64,000 nt of DNA, from positions 32,001 through 96,000 of IMG/VR virus record IMGVR_UViG_3300028920_000040. One strand, 5' to 3'. The notes below the pieces were generated by a model that had not been told where the DNA came from, searched no databases, and saw only the letters and a list, made by a program, of their open reading frames with translations. This DNA comes from a virus. Position 1 is the first letter of the stretch. Each line of letters begins with the position of its first letter. Positions 43,501-60,280 of this stretch are shown piece by piece. The position numbers and the translations under genes are program-made.

Positions 43501-45099
43501 TCCATTAAGTGTGCTGGTGTTACTACTATTGCTGATTATAGTGGAGATTTTTCATACGGTGGTTATGAATTAAGTTCTAATGGAGATATGAATTTCGATC
43601 ATACTGGAGCGTTAGCCGCTAATGCTACAACACATGTAAATGGTAATCTTCATGCTGGTAATACTATAGCAGGATATGATATTTTCTCTAGAATACATTT
43701 TACTGGTTCTGGTAATTTAGATATTGATGATGTTGTAATTGGTACTGGTATAACCAATGGACTTGAATTAGACGATGATGTAACCGTACCTGTAATAGGC
43801 GCATCACAAACAAGTATAACAGATGGTACTCCTATAATCATATTAGGTGATAATGCTACTCTTACGGTCAATAATACTGTTAAATTGCGTAATACTGTTA
43901 ATGCTAACTCGGCGTTTTCTCTTGGTGCTGGTGCTCAGATTAATGGAAGTGGAACAGTTATTATAGAAATGGCATCAACAAGTATTAAAACATGTAAGGT
44001 TGGAAATCTTAATTATACAGGAACTGGAAGTGTTCAATGTGGAGCTTCTATTGTTGTTGGTATAGTTGAATTAGATAATGATACAAATATTGATGGAGAG
44101 TTGAGAGTATTAGATAATGCTCAATTTAATATGAATTCTCAAACATTAGATTGTGGAAGTTTCAGATTTGGTAATGGAATACTTGATATGACAAGTGGAA
44201 CCATAAATTGTGATGGCGATTTTTACATGGATGATCCAACAGCTACAATTCAAAATATTTCTGATTCTATTATAAACATTTTGGGAACTTGCACATTTAC
44301 TTCCAATGGAATTACTTTCCAAGATATTAATGCAAATACAGCCGCACAAATTTTAACATTTGTGGATGGATTAACTTGTGATAATCTTAAAGCAAATCCA
44401 GCCGCAAGATTAAGATTTAAGGGTGGAGAAACTTATACTTGGTCAACATTCAATGAACTTGATTGGGCAGGAGAAACGATAAACAAAATTACTATTGATA
44501 CTGATGGTGGAGTTGCTTTCTGGGATAATCCATCAAGTATGAAGTTATTTAACTGTAATGTTTCTGGTATTTCTGCTCTTGAAGAAGTCGATGCGTTTGT
44601 TACAGACGGAAATACAGATAATGGTAGTAATACAAACTTCGACTTTACAGAAACATATCCTGCTATTTTTAATGTAACATGGAATAATAGTACAAGTACT
44701 ATTGGTGTCGAGTGTAGTGGAGCAGAACCAGTACAGCTCGATGGTAAAGTTGAAGTGTCTGAAACAGGCGAAGCGAACTGGGTAGAACTAGATGTATATC
44801 TTGGTTGGAGTGATAATTTAGTTTCGGGCACAATAGGAAATCTATCGGCAGATTCTTACGATGTTAAACTAACTAATGATGATGGACAATCTACTATTAG
44901 TATTGGCGGACTTTCTCTTGGAGGAGAAACTGTTGTTCAAGCAACATATAATGGAGAATCTGTAAGTATAGTTGGATATAGTAAGTCGGGAGATTCGACA
45001 TATCCAATATATGTTGACGGATCATATAATCTAATAATATCAAAGGACTATACTATTTCTGCAGGAACCATTGTTGCGACAGGAGCATCTATAGCTTAA
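40501..45099 (+). CDS. 1532-aa repetitive beta-helix/adhesin-like virion protein
   Basis: N-terminal W.G..TSANWS..VPTSADNIIFD. About four long internal repeats (C.SGG, TSNG.T, LTC); G/T/N/S-rich. Confidence 0.7.
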   Translation: MSNNFHWVGTDTSFNTSANWSSATSGAGGYGVPTSADNIIFDYGSQDCNLSSAIICHSISSTPTYSGDLNLSGNNITCVSGGGISLDHNGTINTGGSVDLTTDSDVYVSTLLTGLLFGSARFIFTSDGTFDVRGNRYLDGIKLDGDNLTVTYASTNGVHENGFGNYPLEAGNNCTFIPNQRFIMRRSSEPVETTLAFFSAGSNFTVGGTGIFEFYALFAINETRQIPAFTYTGSNQVRYICTSENTTLEITGDLDLGTATINLGADSRMYDHTLDLNGHTINCGTFAGPMIRYLNGPTPSCDFTSATINCNNFVLGTQYAVTSAHAGNWNLEGFTLNTSGDITYPAYQNISGDYNINIFDDCDITSNSATLGNINVNTSGTVNLQDALTCSTVTITDGNWYYNSNTLDCVSGGFSMDGGVRTLSADGETFIAGDFHVGGSVDVNIDKRITFTDNGNLDIDRSAYDINGITINAGVTVTRICGATGQSHINDGDGVPLIMGDNSTFTVNGSGDLGLWLGSAGASMTFGSGAVINGSRNIVACLTNAAVTGTCPAFTYSGTGGVYFQTLSNSSSIQLTGALNVTSGTGINFNLIGSSTSIDLNEQTITAPAFSYTGTGTFDFDNTTQNTDGNYSIAATSTISNPSTSTINITGTCDLTSNGKTLGAIVFPSGSSGTTTLQDDLTCASIAMNSGNTNSFVANGNDITCISGGMNLVDGRITITNPSNVSLAGDLTYKATMLNQGSRINVFTFTANATITWNDTGSNWDIDGGLVIADGVTLIKAGSVGTAFQPHGNGSNAAITMTNATLTLNSGIQVKMDATGSVFNLTGSNTFNGSDTMELRINGGNNKIATIDAFTLGGTVNLYLNTTAGTGHSFLFDGDVAVSGGTFTHNILDGNKIDFNGNILTVGDYTEQLNGTERIELNGGSFVCDSFDLTGTGGTFDVSAGNIVCTSAFTAGSNLTFGNANTGNLLNPTGVTFNTNGVEIPVLYFSGTSADFTLNESIKCAGVTTIADYSGDFSYGGYELSSNGDMNFDHTGALAANATTHVNGNLHAGNTIAGYDIFSRIHFTGSGNLDIDDVVIGTGITNGLELDDDVTVPVIGASQTSITDGTPIIILGDNATLTVNNTVKLRNTVNANSAFSLGAGAQINGSGTVIIEMASTSIKTCKVGNLNYTGTGSVQCGASIVVGIVELDNDTNIDGELRVLDNAQFNMNSQTLDCGSFRFGNGILDMTSGTINCDGDFYMDDPTATIQNISDSIINILGTCTFTSNGITFQDINANTAAQILTFVDGLTCDNLKANPAARLRFKGGETYTWSTFNELDWAGETINKITIDTDGGVAFWDNPSSMKLFNCNVSGISALEEVDAFVTDGNTDNGSNTNFDFTETYPAIFNVTWNNSTSTIGVECSGAEPVQLDGKVEVSETGEANWVELDVYLGWSDNLVSGTIGNLSADSYDVKLTNDDGQSTISIGGLSLGGETVVQATYNGESVSIVGYSKSGDSTYPIYVDGSYNLIISKDYTISAGTIVATGASIA

Positions 45100-45100
45100 T

Positions 45101-45247
45101 ATGATTACTGAAATGAAACATACTGAAAGATTTGGCATCAAGTGGCCAAGAAGAAAATTAGAAGTTAAGAAACTTTCTGAAGTATATAAATCAGGAAACA
45201 ATAATCGTCGCAAGGACGATACGAATAAGGTGGATATACTTATATGA
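45101..45247 (+). CDS. 48-aa basic hypothetical protein (not in ORF track)
   Basis: MITEMKHTERFGIKWPRRK...; ATGA overlap with the 45244 ORF. Confidence 0.4.
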   Translation: MITEMKHTERFGIKWPRRKLEVKKLSEVYKSGNNNRRKDDTNKVDILI

Positions 45248-45516
45248 CTAATCTTATTTTAATAGGAGCAGCCATTTTAATTTTGGTTGTTTGGAAAGGA
45301 TATAATCCTCCAAACGAATATGATGTTAAATATTATGATGGAAGTCATCTCATTTGGAATGTCGTATCAACTAAAAAGCCAAAAAGAACAAAAAAATATA
45401 TAAAGGTATATAATCCCGAAACAGAAACTTGGATGGAGATTAATATTAAAGATTCGGCTAGTGTTAAAATAGAAAAGATAGATTATATATTAAGAAAGGA
45501 AAAAGTACCGAAATAA
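45244..45516 (+). CDS. small membrane-anchored hypothetical protein
   Basis: N-terminal hydrophobic segment LILIGAAILILVVW. Confidence 0.6.
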   Translation: MTNLILIGAAILILVVWKGYNPPNEYDVKYYDGSHLIWNVVSTKKPKRTKKYIKVYNPETETWMEINIKDSASVKIEKIDYILRKEKVPK

Positions 45517-45863
45517 GGGCCTGACTTGGATTTCGACTTAATGATCTTTGACAGGTAGTTGCATGTAGGAGTTGATCGATGGCTCCTTAAAAATCGATCA
45601 AAATATAAATGCAGAAGAATACTCTTATGCAATGGCTGCTTAATTAAAAAGCGGCGATCCAATGATCTGATGCTTCTAGGATCATTGGTTAATCAGAAGC
45701 TGGATGGTATGTAATCCCTGACATATCATTAAGATATTGGGATGCTTTTGTAATAAGTTTGTATAGTTTTTTATTACAAAATAAGATATTAAATTATACT
45801 AAACATGTGAACGAAACTATTTGGCGGATATTAAGGACTCGGGTTCGATCCCCGACAGGTCCA
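45517..45863 (+). ncRNA. ssrA: tmRNA (ssrA), tag (A)AEEYSYAMAA
   Basis: 5' GGGCCTGACTTGGATTTCGAC. 3' T-arm TCGGGTTCGATCCCCGA then CAGGTCCA gives a 7-bp acceptor stem with G3:U and discriminator A. PK1-like pairings GGAG/CTCC and TTGATCGAT/ATCGATCAA. Tag ORF 45611-45643 ends in AA-stop. Confidence 0.95.
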
Positions 45864-45888
45864 TTATTTTTGTTATAAAGGATTTAAA

Positions 45889-45896
45889 TATAAATA
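45889..45896 (+). promoter_or_regulatory. T4-type late promoter TATAAATA heading the CTS-gene block
   Basis: Exact motif 38 nt upstream of the ATG at 45934. Overlaps an AT-only inverted repeat (45890-99 / 45911-20). Confidence 0.65.
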
Positions 45897-45933
45897 ATTA
45901 TGATATATTCAATTATTTATCGAGGACTGCCAA

Positions 45934-46959
45934 ATGAATTTTAGAGATTATTATTTTACAGAATCTAAAAAATACGATCATATAGATTTTAAACCCCCGA
46001 ATGGAGTCGCATCTGAAGCAAAAAAAGGATTAGAGTTTCGTCAAAAAGCGGGAGATAAAGGCGGATTATCTGTTAAACAAGCCAAAAAAGAGGGTGTTGG
46101 ATCAGGAGTTCAAAGAGCAGTCAATCTTAAAAATAGAGATACAATGTCTCCAAAGACTGTTAAAAGAATGAAAGCATTTTTTGATAGACATGAAAAAAAT
46201 GCAAAAATAGATTCGAAATATAAAGGAACTCCTTGGAAAGATAAAGGCTATGTCGCATGGCTACTTTGGGGAGGAGATGCAGGAAGATCGTGGGCAAATA
46301 AGATAGTTCGTCAAATGGAATCTGCTGATAAAAAAATTAATGAAGGATTTGAAGATGTTGAAAAAGCATTAGAAAGAGGCAGAAATAGCGATCCGGCCGA
46401 TCCCGATCTTTGGGAAAAAATTAAAAAAGAAGCAGACAAAAAATATGGAAAAAAGTCTTCTGCATATAAAAGTGGAAAATATATCATCAAAGAAAATGAT
46501 TTACCGGAGTTAGTTCTCCCAATAGGAATTTCGGGCTCGGGTAAAAGTACATGGATTAAGGAATTTAACAAAGATAACAAATACAGAGTTGTCGAGCCGG
46601 ATGGAATTCGCAGAGAAGTAACTGGTGATGTATCTGATGCAAGTCAGGATAAACAAGTTTGGAAGATTGCAAAACAGAGGACTATAAATTCGTTAAGAGG
46701 CGACCAGAGTGTTATTTTGGATGCCACCAACATTGATCCTGACCACCGAGCAGAATTTATAGAAGGTCTTCCTGAATGTGAATTAAAAGCAAAAATATTT
46801 AGACTTGATCCTGAAGAAGCAAAGAAAAGAATTAAATCTGATATAGAATCTGGAAAAGATAGATCGAATGTACCTGAAGAAATTGTCGATAAGATGTTTG
46901 ATAGATTTCAGGATAGTATTTCAAAATTAGAAGATCAAGGATTTCAAATTATTAAATAA
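45934..46959 (+). CDS. fusion: basic phage domain + short LWEK..SAYKSG module + P-loop kinase (AAA_33/PNK-like)
   Basis: GISGSGKST, DGIRRE and VILDATN..R are PNK-like kinase motifs. N-terminal GYVAWLLWGGDAG domain; CTS-like start. Confidence 0.75.
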   Translation: MNFRDYYFTESKKYDHIDFKPPNGVASEAKKGLEFRQKAGDKGGLSVKQAKKEGVGSGVQRAVNLKNRDTMSPKTVKRMKAFFDRHEKNAKIDSKYKGTPWKDKGYVAWLLWGGDAGRSWANKIVRQMESADKKINEGFEDVEKALERGRNSDPADPDLWEKIKKEADKKYGKKSSAYKSGKYIIKENDLPELVLPIGISGSGKSTWIKEFNKDNKYRVVEPDGIRREVTGDVSDASQDKQVWKIAKQRTINSLRGDQSVILDATNIDPDHRAEFIEGLPECELKAKIFRLDPEEAKKRIKSDIESGKDRSNVPEEIVDKMFDRFQDSISKLEDQGFQIIK

Positions 46960-47320
46960 GGAGAGTAAAATGAATTTTAAAGATTATTTAGATGAAGTTA
47001 TAATGAGGCAGTTGAATGAATCTGGTGGCAAAACTAAAACAATAGTTACATATAAAGTAAAAGCTAAGAAAAAGATTGAAGACCCGAAATACAAAGAACC
47101 AGGTGCGTTTGTTAAAAAGGGATTAACTAAGGAAATCAAAAAAAATGAAATAGATTTTATTAAGAAGAATGGTTATACTTTTGATATTCCAATGAGAGAT
47201 TATTCCGCCAAGATTAAAGTGAGTCCAGAAGATTTGGATATTTTAGAAGTAACACAAACAATTACAACAAGTACATCTTCTAAAAAAATATAATCTAAAT
47301 TAGAAGATCAAGGATTTCAA
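46924..47320 (+). repeat. 24-bp direct repeat flanking the 46970 gene
   Basis: aaattagaagatcaaggatttcaa at 46924-46947 and 47297-47320. Confidence 0.9.
46970..47293 (+). CDS. hypothetical protein with CTS-like N-terminus
   Basis: Starts MNFKDYLDE..QLNE. Confidence 0.65.
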   Translation: MNFKDYLDEVIMRQLNESGGKTKTIVTYKVKAKKKIEDPKYKEPGAFVKKGLTKEIKKNEIDFIKKNGYTFDIPMRDYSAKIKVSPEDLDILEVTQTITTSTSSKKI

Positions 47321-47340
47321 GTAATCGATTAGGAGAAAAA

Positions 47341-48738
47341 ATGAATTTTAGAGAACATTATTTTACTCTTATAGAAAGATTTGGTCTTGACGCAATGTAC
47401 GTTCCTCCAAAGGATAAGCAGTATCAATTATATGACTTCTATGCATTGTCTTTAATTAATCCAAATGCTTTTATGGATGAAGAAGCACAAGACTATTTTA
47501 AGCAGGCTAAAGAAACTATCGTTAATCATATCTATAATGACTTTATGTATGCTGTATATTTTGCATTAGCGTCTGAACTATATCATACAAATGATGCGTC
47601 TGATTTTGAAAGTTTTAATTATAAAAATGAAAAAGATAGAGCAGATTTAAAAAAAGAAGTTGGTCTTACCGATAAAGAAATTGATATTCTAGGAAAATTA
47701 GGGTCTAATATTCCAAGTAGAAAAGTAAGATATAATAAGCTCAAAAAATTACTTTCTCCTGATGAGATGGCTAATATAGCAATAAAAGTTTTTGGAAAAC
47801 ATAAATGGTGGAATTCTGCATATGGCGGCGAAGCATGGGCAAATATTGCTAAGGGATATAAAAGATTAATTAATGCAAAAACTATTGGAGATAAAATGGT
47901 TGCTATCGATCACGTTTACGATCTTCAACATAATTCAGATACTGTATTCGATAAGGTACAAGAATATTATAAAGGAGGCGACCTTTATTGGTTAAAGAAT
48001 GCTCTTGATGATAAGGCACAAATCAAAGAACCTCATGTTTATCTAGATAAAACATCTCCTCAATTATTCAGACCCCTTGCATATGCTTTTAAACAGCTAT
48101 ATGGAAAAACTCTTGAATCTTTTAAAACAGAAAAAGAAGAAAAAATTAAACAAATATTAGGAAAGTATAATGTTGATATTAATGATCCTCTCGTACAAGA
48201 ATTTTTAAATGCTATTCAACCATTATTAGCCGTTTATGAAAAATTAGATAATTATACTAAAACTGAAATTATTAGTATTATTAAAATTATAAAACAGAAA
48301 GATTATAATCAATTGAGTGACGATGATACATATGATGATTTAAGAGACGCTATAGACACCGAAGAAACATATGATGTTATTGATTATAAAACCGAAGTTA
48401 ATATTAGAAAAGCAATATCAAAGTTTATTAATAGAATAGAAAATTATAAAACAAAACAATTTTCTAATTATCTTATAAAAGCTGGTTCTGAATTATTTGA
48501 TTATATTATTAAAAATAGTTATAATGCAGATAAAATAATGAAGACATATGATAAATTTCTTAAATTGGCCGAAAAAATTTCTACAGCATATAATATAGAT
48601 TTAATACAAGATATATTTCAGAATATAGTAGAAAACATTGAAAACGATAAGATTAAATTTAAAAACGAACAGCAAAAAGAAAAAGCAAAAAAGTTAGTAA
48701 CAACATTATTAATGGATATCGAAGATTGGGGATTATAA
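47341..48738 (+). CDS. paralogue array member 1 (subfamily A)
   Basis: ERFGLDAMYVPPKDKQYQLYDFYAL..SELYH..YGGEAW..IDHVYDLQHN core with a unique C-terminus. Confidence 0.8.
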   Translation: MNFREHYFTLIERFGLDAMYVPPKDKQYQLYDFYALSLINPNAFMDEEAQDYFKQAKETIVNHIYNDFMYAVYFALASELYHTNDASDFESFNYKNEKDRADLKKEVGLTDKEIDILGKLGSNIPSRKVRYNKLKKLLSPDEMANIAIKVFGKHKWWNSAYGGEAWANIAKGYKRLINAKTIGDKMVAIDHVYDLQHNSDTVFDKVQEYYKGGDLYWLKNALDDKAQIKEPHVYLDKTSPQLFRPLAYAFKQLYGKTLESFKTEKEEKIKQILGKYNVDINDPLVQEFLNAIQPLLAVYEKLDNYTKTEIISIIKIIKQKDYNQLSDDDTYDDLRDAIDTEETYDVIDYKTEVNIRKAISKFINRIENYKTKQFSNYLIKAGSELFDYIIKNSYNADKIMKTYDKFLKLAEKISTAYNIDLIQDIFQNIVENIENDKIKFKNEQQKEKAKKLVTTLLMDIEDWGL

Positions 48739-50066
48739 TGAATTTTAGAGAACATTACTTTATAGAAAAGTTTGGTATGGAATCAATTTACACCATACCA
48801 AAAGACAAAGAACAACAGCTCTTTGACTTTTATGCTTTAACAATGTTCAATCCTAATGCATTAATGGATGAAGAAGCCCAGATGTTTTTTTCAGAAGCTA
48901 AAGAAAAAATTATTGACAGCCTTCAAAAATCTTTTATAGATGCTTTATATACGGCCATTGCTGCTGAACTTACTCATACATTAATGCAGGCTTATCCTTT
49001 CTATTATGCATATCGTAATGATCATGACATTAAATCAAAAAAATCTAAAGCAGAAGTTGAAGAAAAATTTACTCCTGAAGAAATAAAGGTACTTAAAAAC
49101 TCTCATAATATTAGATCATATAATTATGATCAAAGAGCAAATTTCTTTAAAGAAAAAGGATACACTCCTGAAAAATTATATATTCTAGCTAAAAAAGTTT
49201 TTGATTTAAATTGGAGTTCTTCATTTGGTGGAAAGAAATGGAAAGAAATAGCGGTGGGATTAGAAAGATTAATTAATGCAAAATCTATGGGTGATAAAAT
49301 GGTCGCTATAGATCATGCTTATGATCTTCAACACAACAACGATACAGTCTTCAATAAAGTAAAAGAATTCGCTAAGCACGGAAGTTACGAGTGGCTCAAA
49401 AGAGCATTGGATTTAAAAGCACAAATTAAAGAGCCTCATGTTTATCTTGATAATATTTCTTCACAATTATATAGACCAATGGCTTACGCATTAAAACAAA
49501 TATATGGAAAAACATTGGAAAGTTTTCTAAAACAAAAAGAAGAAGAAAAACAAAAATTTAAAGAAGAAATTTTAGAAAAGTGGCCAAACATTTTTAATGG
49601 AATTCGTCTTGAACACCAGGCAAAGAGATCATCAATACAATATAATGTTCCAGTTAGTATATTTATACAATATGATTTTGATAAAAATAAATTAATAGAT
49701 TCTTTTTATGTTCGACATAGTAACAAATCAATGTTAAATGATTATAGAAATAGTCCAGATACTATAGAAGTTAAAGTAATAAAACCAGAAGAAGCAAAAC
49801 AGTTTATAATAAAAAAAGCAACAGACGCAAAAAAATACAATTCAAGTGATTATAATAAATTTTTAAAAGGAGCAATTCAAGCAGCTAGGTCAAGAAATTC
49901 TTTTATGGCTCTTTATTATAATACATCATATAATAATTTTGGATTTTCTAGTATAGGCGATTTTGGATATAATAATGAAAAAGATATAAAACCAGGATTT
50001 ATAGCACTTGGTAATTATGTAATAATAGCCATTGTTAATCCAGACGGGAGTATAGATGAAATTTAG
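48738..50066 (+). CDS. paralogue array member 2 (subfamily B)
   Basis: ATG at 48738 (TAATG overlap); EKFGMESIY..IDHAYDLQHNNDTVF. Confidence 0.8.
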   Translation: MNFREHYFIEKFGMESIYTIPKDKEQQLFDFYALTMFNPNALMDEEAQMFFSEAKEKIIDSLQKSFIDALYTAIAAELTHTLMQAYPFYYAYRNDHDIKSKKSKAEVEEKFTPEEIKVLKNSHNIRSYNYDQRANFFKEKGYTPEKLYILAKKVFDLNWSSSFGGKKWKEIAVGLERLINAKSMGDKMVAIDHAYDLQHNNDTVFNKVKEFAKHGSYEWLKRALDLKAQIKEPHVYLDNISSQLYRPMAYALKQIYGKTLESFLKQKEEEKQKFKEEILEKWPNIFNGIRLEHQAKRSSIQYNVPVSIFIQYDFDKNKLIDSFYVRHSNKSMLNDYRNSPDTIEVKVIKPEEAKQFIIKKATDAKKYNSSDYNKFLKGAIQAARSRNSFMALYYNTSYNNFGFSSIGDFGYNNEKDIKPGFIALGNYVIIAIVNPDGSIDEI

Positions 50067-51372
50067 AGAACATTATTTTACAGAGAAGTTTGGTATGGAA
50101 TCTATATATTCTCTGCCAAAAGACAAAGAACAACAGCTCTTTGACTTTTATGCTTTAACAATGTTCAATCCTAGTGCTTTGATGGACGAAGAAGCCGAAA
50201 TGTTTTTTAATGAAGCAAAAGAAACAGTAATAAATGGTCTTCAAAAATCTTTTATAGATGCTTTATATACAGCCATTGCTGCTGAACTTTTTCATACAAA
50301 AGATCAAGCAAAACCATTTCATGAATATGAACATTCTTTTTCTATAAAAAATAGAAAAAATGCAAAAAGTATTATCGAGTCTCAATTTACTCCAGAAGAA
50401 ATAGCTTTAATAGATGATATTTCTAATGAATATGACTATTCTAGAGGCGAATTGGATTATGATCAAAGAGCAAAAATTTTTAAAGAAGGTGGATATTCTC
50501 CTGAAAAATTATATAAATTTGCTAAAAAAGTTTTTAATCTTGATTGGTATGGTGGATATGGCGGCAAGAAATGGAAACAAATTGCAGATGGATTAGAAAG
50601 ATTAATAGATTCAAAATCTCTTGGTGATAAAATGGTCGCTATAGATCATGCTTATGATCTTCAACATAACAACGATACAGTCTTTAATAAAGTAAAAAAA
50701 TTCGCTAAGCACGGAAGTTATAGTTGGCTTAAGAGAGCTTTAGATTTAAAAGCCAAAATTAAAGAGCCTCATGTTTATCTTAATAATATTTCTTCACAAT
50801 TATATAGGCCTCTTGCTTATGCATTTAAAAAACTTTATAATAAAACTCTTGAAGACTTTACTAGACAACAAGCAGAAAATAGAGAAACAAATAAAAAAAG
50901 AGTTTTAGAATTGTGGGCAAAATCAGATGATTTAGATTATATTAAAAGACGTATGATTTATTCTTCACTGAGGGATAACTCTAACGTATCATCTTTTGCA
51001 AGATATGATAGTGAAAACGATGAGATAATAAATACTTTTTATATATCACACGATAATAATGGAATACAAAGATATAGAAACGATCCAGAATATTTTGAAT
51101 TGGAAACGATAACACCAGAAAAAGCAAAAGAAGAAGCAGTAAAAATAGCAAATGATGCAAAAAAATTGAAACCACAAAAATATAAAAATGAATTAAAAGA
51201 TGTACAATATTATGCAAATGTGTTTAATAAAAATGGTGCAATATACTATGATATAGAAGATGATACTTTTGAAAATACTTTTTATTCTAATGCTTTTATT
51301 AATAAAAACCCTGGAGATATATTTAGTTCGACGTTTGTATTGATGAAAATAGTTACTCCAAAAAAAGATTAA
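50056..51372 (+). CDS. paralogue array member 3 (subfamily B)
   Basis: Same core as members 2 and 4. Confidence 0.8.
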   Translation: MKFREHYFTEKFGMESIYSLPKDKEQQLFDFYALTMFNPSALMDEEAEMFFNEAKETVINGLQKSFIDALYTAIAAELFHTKDQAKPFHEYEHSFSIKNRKNAKSIIESQFTPEEIALIDDISNEYDYSRGELDYDQRAKIFKEGGYSPEKLYKFAKKVFNLDWYGGYGGKKWKQIADGLERLIDSKSLGDKMVAIDHAYDLQHNNDTVFNKVKKFAKHGSYSWLKRALDLKAKIKEPHVYLNNISSQLYRPLAYAFKKLYNKTLEDFTRQQAENRETNKKRVLELWAKSDDLDYIKRRMIYSSLRDNSNVSSFARYDSENDEIINTFYISHDNNGIQRYRNDPEYFELETITPEKAKEEAVKIANDAKKLKPQKYKNELKDVQYYANVFNKNGAIYYDIEDDTFENTFYSNAFINKNPGDIFSSTFVLMKIVTPKKD

Positions 51373-51394
51373 ATATAAAATATGGAGAATAATT

Positions 51395-51550
51395 GTGAAA
51401 AAAATTAAATCTTATTTAGACGAAAAACTTTTTGGTGGAAAAAAGTCAGATGTTGAAGTTATTGCTAAGGCAATATCTAAAATAATTAAAGATAAAGCTA
51501 AGGATGCGGGAATTGATCCTAAGGAAATACTTCATTATATCAAGGTATAA
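51395..51550 (+). CDS. 51-aa protein inside the array (not in ORF track)
   Basis: GTG start after GGAG; (M)KKIKSYLDEKLFGG...ILHYIKV*. Confidence 0.55.
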   Translation: MKKIKSYLDEKLFGGKKSDVEVIAKAISKIIKDKAKDAGIDPKEILHYIKV

Positions 51551-51554
51551 TTAT

Positions 51555-52880
51555 ATGAATTTTAGAGAATATTACTTTGTAGAAAAATTTGGTATGGAAT
51601 CAATTTATTCTTTACCGGAAGACAAAGAACAACAGCTCTTTGACTTTTATGCATTGTCATTAATTAATCCTAATGCATTAATGGATGAAGAAGCTCAAAT
51701 GTTTTTTAATGAAGCAAAAGAAACAGTAATAAATGGTCTTCAAAAATCTTTTATAGGTGCTTTATATACAGCCGTTGCCGCAGAACTTTTCCATACACAA
51801 GCACAAGCAATTCCTTTCTATAAGGCTAAATGGGGAAGTTCTAAACAAAGAATAAACGCAATAAATAAAATTGAAAAAATTTTTACTCCTGAAGAAATAA
51901 AATTAGTAGAAGACATGCGTAATTTTGGTTTAAAGAGTTATGATAAAAGAGCAAACTTTTTAAAAGAAAAAGGATATACTCCTGAAAAATTATATAAACT
52001 AGGACAAAAAATATTTGGTTTATCTTGGTCTTCAGGATATGGCGGTAAGAAATGGAAGCAGATAGCCGATGCATTAGAAAGACTGATTAATGCAACTTCT
52101 CCCGGTGAGAAAATGGTTGCTATAGATCATGCTTATGATCTTCAACATAACAACGATACAGTCTTTAATAAAGTAAAAGAGTTTGCAAAACACGGTAGTT
52201 ATAGTTGGCTTAAGAGAGCTTTAGATTTAAAAGCCAAAATTAAAGAACCTCATATTTATCTTCAAAATATATCTGCTCAGCTTTATAGACCTCTTGCTTA
52301 CGCATTAAAACAAATATATGGAAAAACATTAGAAGATTTTATAAGACAAAAAGAAGAACAAAAACAAAAAATTATAGATGATATTTTAAAGAATTGGCCA
52401 GAAAATGAAAGTCAAAAAGGCGTAGATCAATCTGCAAAATTTCGTTCGGTTCAAGATAATGCTCCGGTTAGTATATTTATAAAATATGATTTTGATGAAC
52501 ACAAAATAATCGATGATTCTTTTGTTTCACATCTTCGCGACAATCTTTTAAAATCTTATAAAAATAGCGATGATTATATCGAAATCAAAATAATAAATCC
52601 TAAAGATGCAAAGAAAGAAATACTTGAAAAAGCAAAATTAGCAAGAGAAAAATCTGATGATTATAATGAGCAGATAGAAGTGACACAACAAGACGCAGAA
52701 CAAACAAAAATGGAATATATAATTTATTATGATCCATTGGAAAAATATGAAAATTTTGGTCATACTGGAAGAAAAAATTTAAGATCGGAGTATCAAAGAA
52801 GTAAACCAGGCGATATGATATATGATAGATATGTATTAATGGCAATTATTAAATCGGATGGAAGTGTAGATGAACTTTAA
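51555..52880 (+). CDS. paralogue array member 4 (subfamily B)
   Basis: Start moved to the ATG at 51555 (MNFREYYFVEK) by homology with the other members. Confidence 0.8.
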   Translation: MNFREYYFVEKFGMESIYSLPEDKEQQLFDFYALSLINPNALMDEEAQMFFNEAKETVINGLQKSFIGALYTAVAAELFHTQAQAIPFYKAKWGSSKQRINAINKIEKIFTPEEIKLVEDMRNFGLKSYDKRANFLKEKGYTPEKLYKLGQKIFGLSWSSGYGGKKWKQIADALERLINATSPGEKMVAIDHAYDLQHNNDTVFNKVKEFAKHGSYSWLKRALDLKAKIKEPHIYLQNISAQLYRPLAYALKQIYGKTLEDFIRQKEEQKQKIIDDILKNWPENESQKGVDQSAKFRSVQDNAPVSIFIKYDFDEHKIIDDSFVSHLRDNLLKSYKNSDDYIEIKIINPKDAKKEILEKAKLAREKSDDYNEQIEVTQQDAEQTKMEYIIYYDPLEKYENFGHTGRKNLRSEYQRSKPGDMIYDRYVLMAIIKSDGSVDEL

Positions 52881-54021
52881 AGAATACTATAATTTAAACG
52901 AAAGATTTGGTCTTGATGCGATGTACGTTCCTCCAAAGGATAAGCAGTATCAATTATATGACTTCTATGCATTATCATTAATTAATCCAAATGCTTTTAT
53001 GGATGAAGAAGCTAAGGATTATTTTAAACAAGCCAAAGAATCAATCATAGATGCAACATATAAAGACTTTGTTAATGCTTTATTCTTTTCTATTGCATCA
53101 GAGATTTTTCATATGGAAGACTCTGCATACTTTTCTCGATTGAATCGAAAAGATATAAAAGATTTTTATAATCTTACTGATAAAGAAATGAAATTTGTAG
53201 AAAAAATGTTTGAAGACAACAGTGCAAAATCTAGAGAAGAAAGAAATAAAATAGTAAGACATGAATTTTCCCCACAAGAACTTGCTAACTTTGCAACGAA
53301 AATATTTGCTGGTAATCCAAAAGCATCTCACGAAGTTGGAGAAAATGATATGTGGGAAGAAGGGTATGGTGGAAAAGCATGGTGGAATATTGCTAAAGGA
53401 TATAATAGACTGCTTAATGCAAAATCCATACCAGATAAAATGGTTGCTATAGATCATGTATATGATTTACAACACAACTCTAATACTGTATTTGATAAGG
53501 TACGAGATTATTATAAGAGCGGGTATTCTTGGCTAAAAGATTCATTAGACGATAAAGCACAAATTAAAGACCCACACGTTTATATTGATAAAACATCTCC
53601 TCAATTGTTTAGACCTTTAGCTTACGCTTTTAAACAGTTATATGGAAAGACTATTGAATCTTTTAAAAAAGAACAATCAGAAAAATATGAAAAAGATATT
53701 ATAGAGTTTATGGATAAAAACGGAATTGATCATTCGCTTTCGTTTTTAGTTGATGGTTTTTTTGACGCACTAGAATTTTTAAATAAATATAAAACAGAAA
53801 TGGGACTTTCAAAAGAATGGATTGAAAATCGAAAATTTAGGTTTAAATATAGTTTAATAGATCAAAATCAAAACAATATAGAAGGTGGTATAAACTTTAT
53901 AATAGATTTAATTGAACAACATGTTAATATGGCTAATATACCATCGTCAGAATCAAAGATAATTATTGATAAATTAGAAGATATTATTAATAAGTTATCA
54001 AATTTAAATTATTTTAAATAA
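52870..54021 (+). CDS. paralogue array member 5 (subfamily A)
   Basis: ERFGLDAMYVPP..IDHVYDLQHN core. Confidence 0.8.
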   Translation: MNFKEYYNLNERFGLDAMYVPPKDKQYQLYDFYALSLINPNAFMDEEAKDYFKQAKESIIDATYKDFVNALFFSIASEIFHMEDSAYFSRLNRKDIKDFYNLTDKEMKFVEKMFEDNSAKSREERNKIVRHEFSPQELANFATKIFAGNPKASHEVGENDMWEEGYGGKAWWNIAKGYNRLLNAKSIPDKMVAIDHVYDLQHNSNTVFDKVRDYYKSGYSWLKDSLDDKAQIKDPHVYIDKTSPQLFRPLAYAFKQLYGKTIESFKKEQSEKYEKDIIEFMDKNGIDHSLSFLVDGFFDALEFLNKYKTEMGLSKEWIENRKFRFKYSLIDQNQNNIEGGINFIIDLIEQHVNMANIPSSESKIIIDKLEDIINKLSNLNYFK

Positions 54022-54042
54022 TAAAATTAAAGGTATAATTAT

Positions 54043-55206
54043 ATGAATTTTAGAGAACATTACTTTACTCTTTTGGAAAGATTTGGTCTTGATGCCATGT
54101 ATGTTCCTCCAAAGGATAAGCAGTATCAATTATATGACTTCTATGCATTATCATTAATAAATCCATATGCTTTTTTGGATGAAGAAGCACAAGACTATTT
54201 TAAGCAGGCTAAAGAAGCAATTATAAATGAGACATATAAAGATTTTATTGACGCAGTATACTTTTCTCTTGCTTCTGAATTATATCATATAGGTGATGCC
54301 AGTACATTTCCTGATATGACAGACTCAGAAATAAAAGATGCAGGAATTAATCTTACTCCTAAAGAAAAAAATACTCTAATTAAATTAAAATATATTGATG
54401 ACTTCATTGATGATATTCCAGATAGAGTAACAAGAAATGATGAAATGAGAAATATATTTTCTCCAATAGAAATGGCTAATTTTGCAATAAAAATTTTTCA
54501 AGAGAATATATGGGAAGACGGTTTCGGCGGTAAAGCTTGGCAGGATATTGCTAAGGGATATAAAAGATTAGTTAATGCAAAATCCATGCCAGATAAAATG
54601 GTTGCAATTGATCATGTTTACGATCTTCAACATAATAATGATACTGTATTTGATAAGGTACAAGAATATTATAACGCCGATAAGGGCGGATATAGATGGT
54701 TAAAGAATGCTCTTGATGATAAAGCACGAATTAAAGAACCTCATGTTTATCTAGATAAAACATCTCCTCAATTATATAGACCTCTTGCATATGCTTTTAA
54801 AGAACTTTATGGAAAAACTCTTGAGGGGTTTAAATATGAGCAAGAGCAAGAGCATAAAAAAAGAACATCTGATTATATGAAAAAATGGAATGTCGAACCA
54901 GAATATAAAAATATCATTGAAAAATATTTAAATGCTTTAGATATACTTAAAAAATATAATGTTGTTAATGATTCTTGGGCAAAAGATAGATTAGATATAC
55001 TTGGTATTAATTTAAAAAATCTAAACATTTTTAAAGATAAATTAACTACATTAGAGAAAGATCGCACTATTAGAAATATTAATGGTATTATTGAAAGTAC
55101 AATATCTATGTTTATTATGGAACAAAATGACTCTATACCAGATAGAGTAGCACAAGAACAAATTAATATATTAAAATCTTTAGTCTTAGAAATACCAGAC
55201 GAATAA
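54043..55206 (+). CDS. paralogue array member 6 (subfamily A)
   Basis: ERFGLDAMYVPP..IDHVYDLQHN core. Confidence 0.8.
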   Translation: MNFREHYFTLLERFGLDAMYVPPKDKQYQLYDFYALSLINPYAFLDEEAQDYFKQAKEAIINETYKDFIDAVYFSLASELYHIGDASTFPDMTDSEIKDAGINLTPKEKNTLIKLKYIDDFIDDIPDRVTRNDEMRNIFSPIEMANFAIKIFQENIWEDGFGGKAWQDIAKGYKRLVNAKSMPDKMVAIDHVYDLQHNNDTVFDKVQEYYNADKGGYRWLKNALDDKARIKEPHVYLDKTSPQLYRPLAYAFKELYGKTLEGFKYEQEQEHKKRTSDYMKKWNVEPEYKNIIEKYLNALDILKKYNVVNDSWAKDRLDILGINLKNLNIFKDKLTTLEKDRTIRNINGIIESTISMFIMEQNDSIPDRVAQEQINILKSLVLEIPDE

Positions 55207-55220
55207 ATTGGAGATGTAAT

Positions 55221-56753
55221 ATGAATTTTAGAGAACACTACTATAAAGACGGTAGATTTATGATGCCGATCTGGTATGACATTGCAACTATTAATGAAGA
55301 TGGTTGTATTGAGATGTCTATACCTCATCATTTCTTTCCTGTACTTGTTGAGAATAAAGTTATTAGACTTCGTATAAAAGATCAAGAATTTAATAACATG
55401 GACGAGGCTATTCAATATCACGATAGTCTTATGGAAAAGAAAGGATCAAAAACAAAGAGTGGTGTAGTGTGGGTAGACTCTAAAGGTAATAAAAGAAGCT
55501 TTGAAGTAGTTGCTGACAATATTAAAATAGGTGCTGACACGATTATTCTTAATATGTCTACTGCTCATAAGTGTATGTCTGCTATGCTTGGTATGTGTCC
55601 TTTGGGCGGGAAGTGTTATGCAATTTCTAAAGAAAAAAGATTTGACGCCGCTTTAGCTGGAGATAAAAGACAGGAAGAACAATGGTCCTGTATGACTCCC
55701 GAAGCTATTGCACAAGGTATTAAAGACCTTGCCGCGGCCGATCCCGGTATTAAATATGTAAGATTAAATGAAGCTGGCGAATTTAGAAATTTACCAAAAG
55801 GAAAAGAACTTCTTTCCAAGATGGATAAACAGGCACAAGGACAAGTTGCTAAGGCCGCTTGGGCAGATGTTGATGATATTTCCAAGTTAAAAAAGATTGC
55901 TTCATTAGTTCCCGAATTAAAATTTTATACATATACGCATAGAAAAGATTTACAGGAAGAACTAAAAGGACTTGGAAAAAATATTGTTATTAATGGATCG
56001 GGATTCATGGTAGATAATGCGTTCATGCCTATTGAACTTAATGAATATCTTCCTATTATTGATGGTATTCTTGCTAACAGATATAAAGTTGTTAATGGAG
56101 AAAAAGTTTCTCCTAACAAGGCAACAGAGTGTATTGGAGACTGTAGAGTATGTGATAAATGCAAAGTTGCAAGAGAAATGAATATCTATCTTCCTATTCA
56201 TGGTGCTGGTACAGAAAAACAAAAAGCATTGGATAAAATTAAGAAAAAAGTTATTGGAAATCCTGCTTTTAATAAAATATTAATGGCTGATATTACAGAC
56301 GATGAAAAGGTTGAACAATTGCTTGATATAGTTGGAATAGAAGATAAAGAAATGATTAATAAACTTAAACCTCTTGTAAGACAAAGGAAAGGATTCTTTA
56401 AGAAACTTCTCAATTCAGAAAAATCAAAAGTAGATTTTATTAGTGCAATTGCTTCATATATAGAATCAGACGACGAACCAACAGCCGCCGAAGTTGCAAA
56501 AGAACCTTCTCAATTAGAAAAACAAAAAGCATTAGCCGCTTCTGTTGACGCTCTTATGGGAAGACTAAGATCAAATCTTGAGGCAGCGAGATCAAAAGGA
56601 CAGACAACCGGTGCAAAGAAATGGCAGAATTTTATAAAGACAATAGATAATATTATAGACAAAGCCAGGTCTGGCGAAGATATTAAACCTACTGGTGCAA
56701 TTGCAAAAGAACTTGGAAAAGATATCAAAAGAACTTTTAAGGGAGTTTCATAA
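55221..56753 (+). CDS. GP88-like Cys-rich protein (radical-SAM-like Fe-S motifs)
   Basis: C..C..CYA, YVRLNEAGEF, FYTYT and CIGDCRVCDKC resemble the phage gene-88 family. Confidence 0.55.
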   Translation: MNFREHYYKDGRFMMPIWYDIATINEDGCIEMSIPHHFFPVLVENKVIRLRIKDQEFNNMDEAIQYHDSLMEKKGSKTKSGVVWVDSKGNKRSFEVVADNIKIGADTIILNMSTAHKCMSAMLGMCPLGGKCYAISKEKRFDAALAGDKRQEEQWSCMTPEAIAQGIKDLAAADPGIKYVRLNEAGEFRNLPKGKELLSKMDKQAQGQVAKAAWADVDDISKLKKIASLVPELKFYTYTHRKDLQEELKGLGKNIVINGSGFMVDNAFMPIELNEYLPIIDGILANRYKVVNGEKVSPNKATECIGDCRVCDKCKVAREMNIYLPIHGAGTEKQKALDKIKKKVIGNPAFNKILMADITDDEKVEQLLDIVGIEDKEMINKLKPLVRQRKGFFKKLLNSEKSKVDFISAIASYIESDDEPTAAEVAKEPSQLEKQKALAASVDALMGRLRSNLEAARSKGQTTGAKKWQNFIKTIDNIIDKARSGEDIKPTGAIAKELGKDIKRTFKGVS

Positions 56754-57175
56754 TGTCATTTAAAGATTATTTAAAGAAAAAATTAAATGAAGGCAAATAT
56801 GATAATACTAATTTAGCCGATCCAAATAGTTATTATAAAGTAATAGACTCCTTTGATGTATTTGTAAAAACCGGGTCAAGTCATGCTAATACTTATTATG
56901 GAAGTGGAGAAATTCTTAAGTCTGTTTGGAAGAAAATGTCAGCAGAACCCGGATATGAAATTCATAATCTCATGGGAGGTACATATATAATTCCAACAGA
57001 TACGGACGACTTGGTTGCATGGAAAGTTTTAATAAAAGAACCAGAGTTTGCTCCTTTTGTAAAAAAGTATTATCCAGACCAACAGGTATTTCCTCTTGAT
57101 AAATTAGAACAAATATCTAAAGAAGAAGCATTATCAGGAGTTGATTATATTGATAAAATGGAGATTACAAAATGA
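56753..57175 (+). CDS. hypothetical protein with CTS-like N-terminus
   Basis: Starts MSFKDYLKKKLNE. Confidence 0.65.
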   Translation: MSFKDYLKKKLNEGKYDNTNLADPNSYYKVIDSFDVFVKTGSSHANTYYGSGEILKSVWKKMSAEPGYEIHNLMGGTYIIPTDTDDLVAWKVLIKEPEFAPFVKKYYPDQQVFPLDKLEQISKEEALSGVDYIDKMEITK

Positions 57176-57750
57176 AATTTGCTATGTTCTACGAACAGGA
57201 AATTGACGACTGGCGTGAGAGAAAAGTGTGGCACATCACACCAACAGGCCAAAGAAATCATGTTAAGATAAAAAGTCTTTCTCCAGAAGAACAAGAAAAA
57301 TATAAGCCGGCTTTACTCGATCTTCATGTTAAAAAGAAAAAGAAAAGTGCTGAAAATAAAAATCCTGAGAAAAAGGAAAAGGAGAAAAAAGCTTCAGCCG
57401 GAGAAATTTTAGACCCGGACCTTCTAGATTTTTATTATATTATAAATAGTCCTGAAGATATCGATAAGATAGAAAAAGGAAAATTAATTAAGGCTACTGA
57501 TCTTTCAAGTAAAGCAATAGAATGGTCTGGCGACGATAAATACATAGTTAGTGTATCAAATGTTCCTATTAAGGCTGTTGTGCTTTATAAGAATGATGAA
57601 GGAGAAATGGTACATTTTCCTGAGAATATGAAGACGCACGACAAATATGAATTTATTAAGTTTCAAGAAAACGACGAGTTTCTTTTAAACTTATTTCCAT
57701 TTTTAGAACAAATAACAATTAAACTTTCAGATAAGGAAGAAAAAAAATGA
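57172..57750 (+). CDS. hypothetical protein with CTS-like N-terminus
   Basis: Starts MKFAMFYEQE; coupled overlaps with neighbours. Confidence 0.6.
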   Translation: MKFAMFYEQEIDDWRERKVWHITPTGQRNHVKIKSLSPEEQEKYKPALLDLHVKKKKKSAENKNPEKKEKEKKASAGEILDPDLLDFYYIINSPEDIDKIEKGKLIKATDLSSKAIEWSGDDKYIVSVSNVPIKAVVLYKNDEGEMVHFPENMKTHDKYEFIKFQENDEFLLNLFPFLEQITIKLSDKEEKK

Positions 57751-57956
57751 GCTTAAAAAATTTTCTTATTCAAAAATTAAATGAAGATGATGGCATACCA
57801 AGACCACCAACAGAAAGTGAAAAAGGTTCTATGCAAGCATTATTTAATACTTGGCGTAATATAGGAAGAGGTCTAGCAGATGATCACATGCCTCTTGATA
57901 TTGTAGAAACAGTTGTAAGATATTTAGAAGATTGTGGTTATATTAAAGGAGAATAA
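57747..57956 (+). CDS. small hypothetical protein with CTS-like N-terminus
   Basis: Starts MSLKNFLIQKLNE. Confidence 0.6.
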   Translation: MSLKNFLIQKLNEDDGIPRPPTESEKGSMQALFNTWRNIGRGLADDHMPLDIVETVVRYLEDCGYIKGE

Positions 57957-57957
57957 A

Positions 57958-58233
57958 ATGAATAGCAAATCTTTTCAGCAGTATTTAAACGAAGACATTT
58001 ATGCAAATGCACTTAGAAAAAAATTAACCCCAGAAGAAATTAAAAGGATTGACAGTTTTGTTGATAGTGAAGGAGAAGAGTGGGACGATCTTGAAGGCGA
58101 TCTTTATGATAAACTCATGGATTTCTTTGCTGATGAAATGCCATATGGTGTTATGAAAGCAAGAACTGGTGATCCTATGGAATGGATGTACGATAAATTC
58201 ATATCAATGGGATTTGGAACAAGAGTAAAATAA
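57958..58233 (+). CDS. small hypothetical protein with CTS-like N-terminus
   Basis: ATG at 57958 after AGGAG; starts MNSKSFQQYLNE. Confidence 0.6.
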   Translation: MNSKSFQQYLNEDIYANALRKKLTPEEIKRIDSFVDSEGEEWDDLEGDLYDKLMDFFADEMPYGVMKARTGDPMEWMYDKFISMGFGTRVK

Positions 58234-58234
58234 T

Positions 58235-58798
58235 ATGACTTTCAAAGATTTTTATCTTGACGAAAAGATGGCGAGGTGGAACCTACCTAAAAAGAAATGG
58301 GTATCTTTACCATTGGAAGAACTTAATGATGATATGAAACAACTTCTTTGGAGAATGTATTCGGATTCATATAGTCGTCAAGGACTTGCTTTGAATACAA
58401 AAAATATTAATGAATTGGTTGATAAATATAAAGTTTCCTGGTTCATTGATGTTGATACAGATACTACACCAGAAGCATTTATAATTTATAGAGAATCACC
58501 AGTAGGCAATAAAATTGCTCTTTTAGGAACAGACGATAACCGTCTTTCAAAAAGACTTCTTGTAAGAAAGTTAATTTCTCTTTTAAGAAAGCCAGGTTGG
58601 TATATAGAAGCCTCCCATAAGATTGCAGACATTATTGAGAATAAGGGTGGCAAATGGATTGACGACGAAGAAAAGGTTAAAAAGATTCTTGCTCCTGCGG
58701 AAATAGATGAATGGCTTGGTGATGGAAGATATAAAAGAACACTTAAAGGAACAAATATAGAAGTTACAAAAAGACTCTATGGTAATCCAAGAGGATAA
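58235..58798 (+). CDS. hypothetical protein with CTS-like N-terminus (possible GNAT-like fold)
   Basis: Starts MTFKDFYLDE. The fold guess is weak. Confidence 0.55.
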   Translation: MTFKDFYLDEKMARWNLPKKKWVSLPLEELNDDMKQLLWRMYSDSYSRQGLALNTKNINELVDKYKVSWFIDVDTDTTPEAFIIYRESPVGNKIALLGTDDNRLSKRLLVRKLISLLRKPGWYIEASHKIADIIENKGGKWIDDEEKVKKILAPAEIDEWLGDGRYKRTLKGTNIEVTKRLYGNPRG

Positions 58799-58807
58799 GG
58801 AGTAGAT

Positions 58808-59074
58808 ATGAAATATCAAGATTATTTGACAAAACTATTAAAAGAACAATCAAAAGAAGAAACTAAAATTAATGAGCTTGAAGAAGAAATTTCTGATTTG
58901 ATTTGGAGATATGATCCTGAAGGAGAGGATAATTTTTTTGATGACGACTTAGATAAAATCAAAAAGATTAAAAATCCAAAATCAAAAATTAAAGCACTTG
59001 AAAGATTAATTTCAGATATCAAATGGCGATATGATCCTGAAGGGGAAGACGAAAATAATTTTTTTGATGATTAA
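58808..59074 (+). CDS. small protein with internal duplication
   Basis: ISDxxWRYDPEGED..NFFDD occurs twice; starts MKYQDYL. Confidence 0.65.
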   Translation: MKYQDYLTKLLKEQSKEETKINELEEEISDLIWRYDPEGEDNFFDDDLDKIKKIKNPKSKIKALERLISDIKWRYDPEGEDENNFFDD

Positions 59075-59094
59075 ATATAGTAAAGAAAAATATA

Positions 59095-59223: not shown

Positions 59224-59239
59224 TGAAAGGAGAATTGTT

Positions 59240-59449: not shown

Positions 59450-59451
59450 TA

Positions 59452-59853: not shown

Positions 59854-59854
59854 A

Positions 59855-60276: not shown

Positions 60277-60280
60277 TATT

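Follow-up and report, generated by a model that had tools for sequence, protein, structure and literature searches.

Six related genes in tandem

We describe here a tandem array of six related genes at positions 47341 to 55206 of a 64,000-nucleotide stretch, hereafter the window, of the viral record IMGVR_UViG_3300028920_000040. The record belongs to an uncultured T4-like phage (a myovirus) from marine sediment; it is 123,835 bases (b) long and rated about 48% complete, the window being its bases 32001-96000, and it encodes a T4-type portal, a gp21-type head maturation protease, a scaffold, a major head protein, and sheath, tube and baseplate proteins. The reading that we put forward, tentatively and at slightly less than an even chance for the whole, is that the array is a lineage-specific expansion of proteins that each join a leader peptide, a helical core with a substrate or phosphoryl-transfer site and variable parts that choose the target, and that these proteins are packaged and injected.

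Every gene of the array region lies on the + strand. The six copies (Table 1) are open frames arranged head to tail, abutting or overlapping, in agreement with a preliminary description of six tandem paralogues of 383-465 amino acids (aa) in two subfamilies, in the order A,B,B,B,A,A. The layout given there also holds: a leader, a DFYAL..ExxH block, a variable insert (columns ~89-190), a GGxxW..DHxYDLQHN..K block and a divergent C-terminus, with the first ~270 residues of the six copies alignable. Between the copies, where a polymorphic toxin system would have its immunity genes, the only open reading frame (ORF) is the 51-aa one at 51395.

The other A copies are 53-55% identical to copy 1 and the B copies 37-41%, while the other B copies are 55-59% identical to copy 4. 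In a tree of 94 cores the A clade has a support of 0.998, with P0003, a fragment from another sample, nested within it, and the B clade 0.996. A search of the whole record gave seven matches, the seventh being a further copy outside the window, and all seven copies (copy 7 is P0018 in the tree) fall with P0014, P0003 and P0022 into one clade of ten with a support of 0.962. Because the copies form a single clade, we read the array as an expansion within the phage lineage. For two further relatives, P0014 and P0017, the longest contig on record measures 226,364 b, a length also given for four array proteins, so the complete genome may hold eight or nine copies.

Table 1. Positions of the array genes and of features around them (window numbering unless stated)
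Feature	Position	Strand	Remarks
T4-late-promoter-like octamer TATAAATA	45889..45896	+	45 nucleotides (nt) 5' of first leader-tagged gene; weak hint only
Leader-tagged neighbour: N-terminal domain without assigned function + P-loop kinase (AAA_33 / polynucleotide-kinase-like)	45934..46959	+	PF13671 E 3.9e-21; phrog_505; leader MNFRDYYFTE
Leader-tagged 107-aa gene without assigned function	46970..47293	+	followed directly by repeat D12 (47294-47325)
Copy 1, A type, 465 aa	47341..48738	+	leader MNFREHYFTLIE, core, long C-terminus
Copy 2, B type, 442 aa from ATG	48738..50066	+	listed ORF starts at TTG, 48726; leader MNFREHYFIE
Copy 3, B type, 438 aa	50056..51372	+	leader MKFREHYFTE
Small 51-aa ORF, GTG start, between copies 3 and 4	51395..51550	+	leader-like start VKKIKSYLDE
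Copy 4, B type, 441 aa from leader ATG	51555..52880	+	listed ORF starts at 51504; leader MNFREYYFVE; modelled full length
Copy 5, A type, 383 aa	52870..54021	+	leader MNFKEYYNLNE
Copy 6, A type, 387 aa	54043..55206	+	leader MNFREHYFTLLE; core (residues 1-280) modelled alone
Neighbour gene, weak GP88 match	55221..56753	+	PF17338 E 1.7e-6; first eight residues MNFREHYY as in array; repeat D7
Copy 7, leaderless, begins directly at core	G000:C1:113180-114496 (outside window)		~26 kb 3' of array

The core domain and its dikinase-like relatives

No Pfam, NCBIfam or PADLOC model matches any of the seven copies, and a profile search of PDB sequences found nothing at E<=1. All seven are matched by phrog_20946 (E 3.5e-11 to 1.8e-6), a family without functional annotation, though only over ~50-85 residues of the GGxxW..DHxYDLQHN block (profile positions ~153-237 of 336). 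Searching 1.84 billion proteins with the six-copy profile reveals a large and almost entirely viral family, with 1157 representative clusters (at 50% identity) at E<=1e-3 and 620 at E<=1e-10. A PcfJ-like identity for the constant domain was rejected, there being no PF14284 match in the copies (E<=0.1), in the record (E<=10) or in five other family-bearing phage records.

The 54 viral-contig loci carry the family as single genes, as tandem arrays or inside giant proteins of 1300-3936 aa. Other arrays have five copies in four near-identical contigs (L023, L024, L025 and L027, 106-140 kb, at 6456-14579 in each, with the leader MIKIIRVKPKIKE), three in L012 and two in L042/L043; the five-copy array is invariant across its four lineage contigs. 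Some giant proteins contain two or three cores. Eleven contigs of 33-66 kb (L030, L034, L036, L039, L048, L060-L063, L066 and L067) each hold one giant ORF of 2751-3936 aa with the core once or twice, its recognisable parts being GNAT domains in L036, a beta-solenoid in L030 and otherwise none. Enzyme modules occur in two giant proteins, as a polynucleotide-kinase-family N-terminus (phrog_415) in L051 and as GNAT acetyltransferases in L036. The gene context of the giant-protein contigs and of the other arrays is mostly uninformative.

The full-length model of copy 4, built from an 82-sequence alignment (predicted local distance difference test, pLDDT, 93.8; predicted template modelling score, pTM, 0.84), is all-alpha in its core, up to about residue 300, and alpha/beta in its C-terminal domain (305-441); the core of copy 6 modelled alone scores as well (pLDDT 94.0, pTM 0.89). 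The variable insert is modelled as a helical subdomain; the long helix before it closes with ExxH, and GGxxW opens the helix that follows. A Foldseek search of PDB with the full model and with the core gave nothing at E<=1e-3. Against 48,161 chains, VIA-align gave a best Z of 5.2 for the full model (78 residues of the filovirus VP30 C-terminal domain) and of 4.8 for the core, with none of the chains at Z>=5 for the latter; the background that the tool states for helical proteins is higher than these values. In a comparison with known metal-dependent helical enzymes (HD domain, ferritin-like di-iron proteins, HEPN / NTase-associated bundles), the low-scoring rows include HI0074 (Z 4.5) and, at Z 3.9, a HEPN toxin, both under that same background. 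BFVD offered only four unnamed viral proteins (E 0.014-0.042, TM 0.35-0.39), and ESM Atlas no usable match by features and TM <=0.32 by structure. The core of ~260 aa is thus confidently predicted as an all-helical domain with no detectable solved relative, which does not prove a new fold.

Conservation within this domain is concentrated in a small set of residues. In the alignment of 82 members the invariant ones are Y, E, G, W, D, H, W and L, and at least 90% of the members keep the H of ExxH, the H, D, Q and N of DHxYDLQHN and two lysines. In copy 6 numbering, E79, G162, W166, D190 and H197 are present in all 82 phage cores, H191 in 74, D194 in 76 and N198 in 80, and the same eight positions are kept in each of twelve cellular cores. 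Altogether 21 positions are conserved in both sets (at least 85% of the 82 phage cores and at least 80% of the 12 cellular ones), including D32, F33, Y34, E79, G162, G163, W166, D190, H191, D194, Q196, H197, N198, K205 and K227, and all the conserved polar residues are common to phage and cellular cores.

These cellular cores come from a profile scan of one genome per species (185,579 species), which found 14 loci, all in metagenome-assembled genomes (MAGs). At 12 of them the core forms the C-terminal domain in a protein whose N-terminus resembles pyruvate, phosphate dikinase (PPDK), with an ATP-grasp and a phospho-histidine swivel domain, and it stands in place of the catalytic TIM barrel; the remaining two are a tandem pair of phage-type copies (L071) and a core inside a 1322-aa protein (L072). 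The fusions are spread over six MAGs labelled Obscuribacter/Obscuribacterales, two contigs of one Planktothrix MAG, one other cyanobacterial MAG, two MAGs of the candidate phyla radiation (CPR) and one gammaproteobacterial MAG. Eleven of the fusion proteins are complete, at 724-992 aa, and the one in L080 is cut by the contig end. A phmmer search of PDB with the L083 protein matched PPDK over its residues 1 to ~460 (E 5.9e-105); on the PPDK chain the match reaches residue ~490 of 874, taking in the ATP-grasp domain and the central phospho-histidine domain but leaving out the phosphoenolpyruvate (PEP)/pyruvate domain at the C-terminus. The C-terminal part, in turn, is matched by the core profile in hhalign with a probability of 98.1% and 98.5% (E 7.7e-14 and 2e-15) for the two fusions tried, over columns 24-245, which is the whole core. 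All 29 homologues of the fusion C-terminus carry PF01326 and PF00391, with no Pfam recorded on the C-terminal part, and go under the public names 'pyruvate, phosphate dikinase' or 'phosphohistidine swiveling domain-containing protein'. Of the 54 viral loci, one (L069) contains this fusion too.

Within the PPDK family, it is at the third domain that the phosphate passes from the phospho-histidine to the substrate. Since the core replaces that domain and has an invariant set of acidic, histidine and lysine residues, it is best read as a substrate-binding or phosphoryl-transfer site, and this domain architecture makes such a function probable. The suggestion in the preliminary description that ExxH and DHxxDxxHN form a metal or catalytic site thereby gains indirect support, from the residue conservation and from the position of the core behind the PPDK domains. 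Compared with PPDK and PEP synthase (PF01326, PF00391 and a TIM barrel), the subfamily to which the fusions belong (29 clusters, with 12 MAG loci) carries the array core as its third domain; the array proteins, in contrast, have neither ATP-grasp nor swivel, share with that subfamily only the C-terminal core domain, and possess in it an all-helical domain and no TIM barrel. The public name 'pyruvate, phosphate dikinase' that the fusion proteins bear is likely to be wrong about the substrate, because an all-helical core stands where the PEP/pyruvate TIM barrel belongs. Both the constant domain and its link to dikinases appear to be new, as far as our literature searches reach.

Downstream of the cellular fusion, on the same strand, lie a CX5R phosphatase-like gene at four loci and a small conserved protein, F1, at five. 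This operon is found in L073-L084 (for example L074:2015-4989 and L076:1820-6022), in MAGs of Melainabacteria, Cyanobacteria, CPR and Gammaproteobacteria; its CX5R gene resembles protein tyrosine and dual-specificity phosphatases (PTP/DSP), and the small protein has the motifs FMAGTEGTG and RVRVEP. Such an arrangement hints at a writer, an eraser and perhaps their substrate. Glucan water dikinase, a histidine-swivel dikinase, is likewise paired with a dual-specificity phosphatase of the SEX4 type (CX5R); the likeness to the cellular fusion, which has a CX5R phosphatase-like gene at 4 of its 12 loci, is one of gene pairing.

A more specific proposal, which we consider improbable, makes the core the acceptor-site domain of histidine-swivel dikinases of an as yet unrecognised class, with a substrate other than pyruvate. 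Free copies loaded into the head would then take phosphate from a host phospho-histidine enzyme, such as PEP synthase, PPDK or enzyme I of the phosphotransferase system (PTS), or would strip a phospho-mark, each paralogue being aimed by its variable cap and C-terminal binder; if true, this would make the array a programmable, virion-delivered phosphotransfer toolkit. The free cores could instead be decoys or sponges directed at a bacterial enzyme with a PPDK-like core: by binding or hydrolysing its product or its substrate they would cancel a host pathway, which may be one of defence, and the paralogues would correspond to host variants. That phage and cellular cores share their ligand-site residues, that the cellular operon suggests a regulated phospho-mark and that the phage copies have no kinase modules would all suit such a role. 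The cellular fusion is, however, rare (the 12 loci among 185,579 species genomes) beside a huge viral family, the phyla that bear it need not be the hosts of this phage, PADLOC defence models matched none of the seven copies, and a literature search judged by title and abstract brought up no relevant paper on dikinases in anti-phage defence. We give decoys only a small chance.

Equally small is the chance of a non-enzymatic role in the structure or scaffolding of the virion, in the head interior or on its surface, with the polar residues serving protein-protein contacts. The occurrence of the family inside giant proteins (1300-3900 aa, in viral contigs of 40-66 kb) that resemble large internal virion proteins speaks for this, as do the binder repeats that make up the recognisable C-termini. 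Yet a cluster of invariant His, Asp, Glu, Asn and Lys residues like the one that phage proteins and enzyme fusions have in common is more usual in active sites, and seven or more diverged copies would be unusual for a stoichiometric structural part.

The leader peptide and the head protease

The N-terminal leader is not confined to the array. In the record, 15 non-nested ORFs begin with M-[NSTK]-F-[KR]-[DE]-[HYF]-[YFL] or a close variant, 14 of them between 45934 and 62813 of the window and one at 28530 (28530-29018). They include five array copies (copy 4 was missed, an earlier ATG having been used as its start), and the ten others are genes unrelated to the array, among them the polynucleotide-kinase (PNK)-like gene at 45934, the GP88-like gene at 55221 and a paralogue pair, 62143 and 62487, starting MNKFKDYLD. 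The stretch from 45934 to 62813 thus looks like a whole block of tagged accessory genes. The motif [LIFV]-x-E with its Glu at position 8-15 is present in 14 of the 15 leader ORFs, compared with 25 of 144 others (Fisher p 4.5e-9, the five array copies not being independent), and in nine of the ten leader genes outside the array. As the upstream DNA is not conserved and synonymous codons vary (TTT/TTC, AAT/AAC, TAT/TAC, GAT/GAC), the leader is conserved at the peptide level. The same differences rule out a regulatory cassette in the DNA as the source of the common gene start.

Similar starts occur elsewhere in the family. Of 138 representatives with an N-terminal core, 121 have [LIVFM]-x-E within the 14 residues before it, and the Glu before the core is present in at least 90% of the 82 aligned members. 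In the T4-like contig L012 a leader of the type M-[KR]-F-x-x-L-Y...E, ending hydrophobic-x-E, stands on three family copies and on more than ten unrelated small genes, on both strands, and in the 511-kb phage L042 two copies and two small neighbours share a leader-type start with the same ending. The cellular cores have no leader, their alignment beginning only at profile column 21-32.

In the head genes of the phage, a gp21-type protease (phrog_207, E 2.6e-56) and a gp22-type scaffold (phrog_237, E 8.3e-21) adjoin the portal and major head protein. There are 17 [LI]xE sites in the 266 aa of the scaffold, LAE at residue 52 of the capsid protein, and [LI]xE sites near both ends of the protease itself. 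According to PMC9026906, residues 1-10 of IPIII make up the capsid-targeting sequence of T4, and L/I-X-E is the motif after which gp21 cuts; PMC3012670 describes the internal proteins of T-even phages as a diverse, defence-countering set with only this targeting sequence in common. A literature search on capsid-targeting sequences in cyanophage brought up a T4 review only. Like T4 IPI, IPII, IPIII and Alt, the array proteins and their tagged neighbours have a short N-terminal peptide ending hydrophobic-x-Glu on otherwise unrelated proteins, and like them they have diverse, fast-evolving bodies; in both cases the phage has a protease of the gp21 type and a scaffold of the gp22 type. Unlike them, the array proteins match no annotated internal protein among the PHROGs in their mature parts, only phrog_20946; they are 4-6 times larger than IPI (76 residues when mature, by the account in PMC3012670), are multi-domain, are not basic and have seven or more paralogues, and their loading and cleavage are putative.

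We read the leader as a propeptide of the T4 capsid-targeting kind; head loading through it is plausible, at about an even chance. The array proteins would then be built of three modules. The N-terminal leader of 10-12 residues, ending [L/I/F]-x-E, would be removed by the gp21-type prohead protease; the core, with D-F-Y, E-x-x-H, G-G-x-x-W, D-H-x-x-D-L-Q-H-N and two Lys, would form the substrate or phosphoryl-transfer site; and the fast-evolving helical insert together with the variable C-terminal domain would pick the target. The array genes would be co-transcribed, and the leader would load the proteins into the prohead and then be clipped. The clipped proteins would enter the host along with the DNA, where each paralogue might act on or bind a phosphorylated or phosphorylatable substrate of a different variant. 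The genes and their family, the confidence of the fold, the fusion architecture, the residues in common and the leader statistics are observations. We infer injection from the leader with its protease motif and from the gp21-type protease, and packaging, cleavage, catalysis and the target are likewise proposed; a role in counter-defence is conceivable.

Several observations count against this proposal. The strict T4 motif, L/I-x-E, is found in 11 of the 15 leader ORFs and 16 of the 144 others, and in copies 2, 3 and 4 the Leu or Ile of T4 is replaced by Phe (F-x-E). Gene 55221 begins like a leader gene with no [LIFV]xE to follow, and copy 7 has no leader at all. The Glu before the core is also kept in 8 of the 11 internal cores of giant proteins, which fits polyprotein processing but could equally mark a residue of the domain rather than a cutting site. 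The isoelectric points of the copies, 5.1-8.7, are not basic like those of classical DNA-bound internal proteins. The late-promoter-like octamer TATAAATA is not enriched, with 17 occurrences in the whole window against 17.9 expected. On the enzymatic side, no known catalytic fold was matched by Foldseek or VIA-align, the six copies contain neither the ATP-grasp domain PF01326 nor the swivel domain PF00391, and the same two domains are missing from the ~48%-complete record (at E<=1 for PF01326). Cultured phages, finally, are nearly devoid of the family: tblastn against 50,697 phage records gave four matches, none covering 80% of the query, of which one was in a 595-kb uncultured phage and three were weak partial ones in Vibrio siphophages.

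Some of these points would suit enzymes or binders that stay in the cytoplasm of the infected cell and are never packaged, the shared N-terminus being an amphipathic start that accessory genes of this phage favour for translation, folding or docking to a partner. Copy 7, on this account, works without a leader, and the proteins are not basic; the block lies among auxiliary genes (a CCA-adding enzyme and the PNK-like kinase), and the promoter scans gave no late-expression signal. Sigma-70 promoter and terminator scans did not rise above shuffles, and no terminator-like sites were found on the + strand within 45000-58500. In L012, too, leader-like starts are very common on small genes, perhaps too many for every one to be cargo. 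Against a purely cytoplasmic role stand the concentration of the protease-type motif in the leader ORFs, the conservation of the leader as peptide and not as DNA, its absence from the cellular homologues, its poor order in the model (residues 1-10 of copy 4 have a pLDDT of 48) and the presence of a matching protease in the phage. We consider such a role rather unlikely, though it is the alternative to packaging and injection that we take most seriously.

Divergence, possible exchange and the surrounding genes

The conserved blocks had been described as near-identical at the DNA level within each subfamily, and this proved incorrect: in 30-codon windows their identity is 73-94%, and synonymous divergence (dS) amounts to 0.49-1.24, so the copies are old duplicates. 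The insert and C-terminus are 33-83% identical within subfamilies in the same kind of window. Among within-subfamily pairs the ratio of nonsynonymous to synonymous divergence (dN/dS) is 0.10-0.25 for the conserved blocks, 0.61-1.58 for the insert and 0.75-1.33 for the C-terminus, the latter two being rough values as divergent segments align poorly. The dS of the insert (0.39-0.78) is not above that of the conserved blocks and its dN is about four times higher, a pattern that fits relaxed or diversifying selection in a region where the alignment is unreliable.

The idea that the variable parts set specificity is plausible in the light of these rough ratios, and the C-termini that can be recognised are binder-type repeats. 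Pfam matches were obtained for the C-termini of 4 of 73 mid-sized representatives, all of them repeats (beta-solenoid, SH3_15, DUF4116 and ankyrin), of 3 of 16 long ones and of 1 of 9 close ones (DUF5661), and several others have five-residue G-x-W repeats. Pfam toxin families are absent from the six copies, the 73 representatives and the 16 long ones.

Short-read contigs break at the repeated blocks of the array, which might raise the suspicion of an assembly artefact or of a decaying run of pseudogenes. The preliminary description had judged an artefact unlikely, and the data bear this out. Two marine-sediment runs from two studies, X1 and X2, were examined as Logan contigs: X1 has contig pieces of every copy at a depth of 10-15, compared with 12-13 for the flanks, and in X2, the second study, copies 2, 4, 5 and 6 and the junction between copies 3 and 4 are represented by identical pieces. 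With all six frames open, the low dN/dS of the conserved blocks, and arrays of 2, 3 and 5 copies in other viral contigs, an artefact or pseudogene run is a very remote prospect.

Recombination at the conserved blocks had also been proposed, and here the evidence consists of footprints; ongoing recombination is not proven. A 31-nt stretch coding for the leader is repeated at seven gene starts, including those of the non-family genes 45934 and 55221, and 32 nt at 47294-47325, just 5' of copy 1, repeat the 3' end of gene 45934 (D12, 91% identity). Copies 4 and 6 have the 13 nt before the ATG in common. The repeats at cassette borders look like footprints of cassette-wise duplication or exchange at gene borders. 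One X2 contig of 526 letters joins 47306-47400, from 5' of copy 1, to 54103-54533 in copy 6, skipping 6702 b; it may represent a contracted variant of the array or an artefact of a 47-letter shared stretch, the shorter side being 95 letters. Most other short joints in the X1 and X2 data (sides of 21-47 letters) probably come from repeats or from other phages. As for close relatives in which copy number could be compared, the six-copy profile led to only three distant loci among viral contigs and one among metagenome contigs.

Just 5' of the block of tagged genes lies a complete transfer-messenger RNA (tmRNA) gene (window 45517-45866, + strand; Rfam RF00023, 132.7 bits; ARAGORN tag AEEYSYAMAA). 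Together with a CCA-adding enzyme (window 60433-61872; phrog_2244, E 1.4e-78), a tRNA-His guanylyltransferase (G000:C1:102968-103759, equal to L010:7968-8759; phrog_4717, E 1.5e-98) and the PNK-like kinase (45934-46959) it makes up the tRNA/RNA maintenance set of the phage. Within the structural region there is a cluster of sugar-nucleotide genes on the + strand (window 27938-40264) for a cytidylyltransferase, a methyltransferase, a nucleotide-sugar epimerase, an aminotransferase and a NUDIX protein, followed by a gene for a 1532-aa repeat protein rich in Gly, Thr and Asn (window 40501-45099, +). This protein and a 2679-aa one encoded after the baseplate hub (window 2642-10681, +) have no family match and are probably fibre or baseplate parts. 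In the related T4-like contig L012, the large terminase seems to be split into two ORFs (4140-6519, - strand), the downstream one with an extra N-terminal segment, possibly through an intein or intron-like insertion.

Tagged cargo repertoires of T4-like phages are a kind already known from T4. If the leader is indeed a head-loading tag, the array would add to the large and diversifying injected repertoires of these phages, here with an enzyme-like constant module rather than a pure binder. The constant domain represents one of the larger unnamed virus-borne families (1157 clusters), with a confident fold and, earlier, no functional clue; its fusion to PPDK modules now offers a bench-testable hypothesis, in which the core serves as the acceptor site of a phosphoryl transfer, and it points to a group of bacterial proteins that probably go by the name 'pyruvate, phosphate dikinase' in error.

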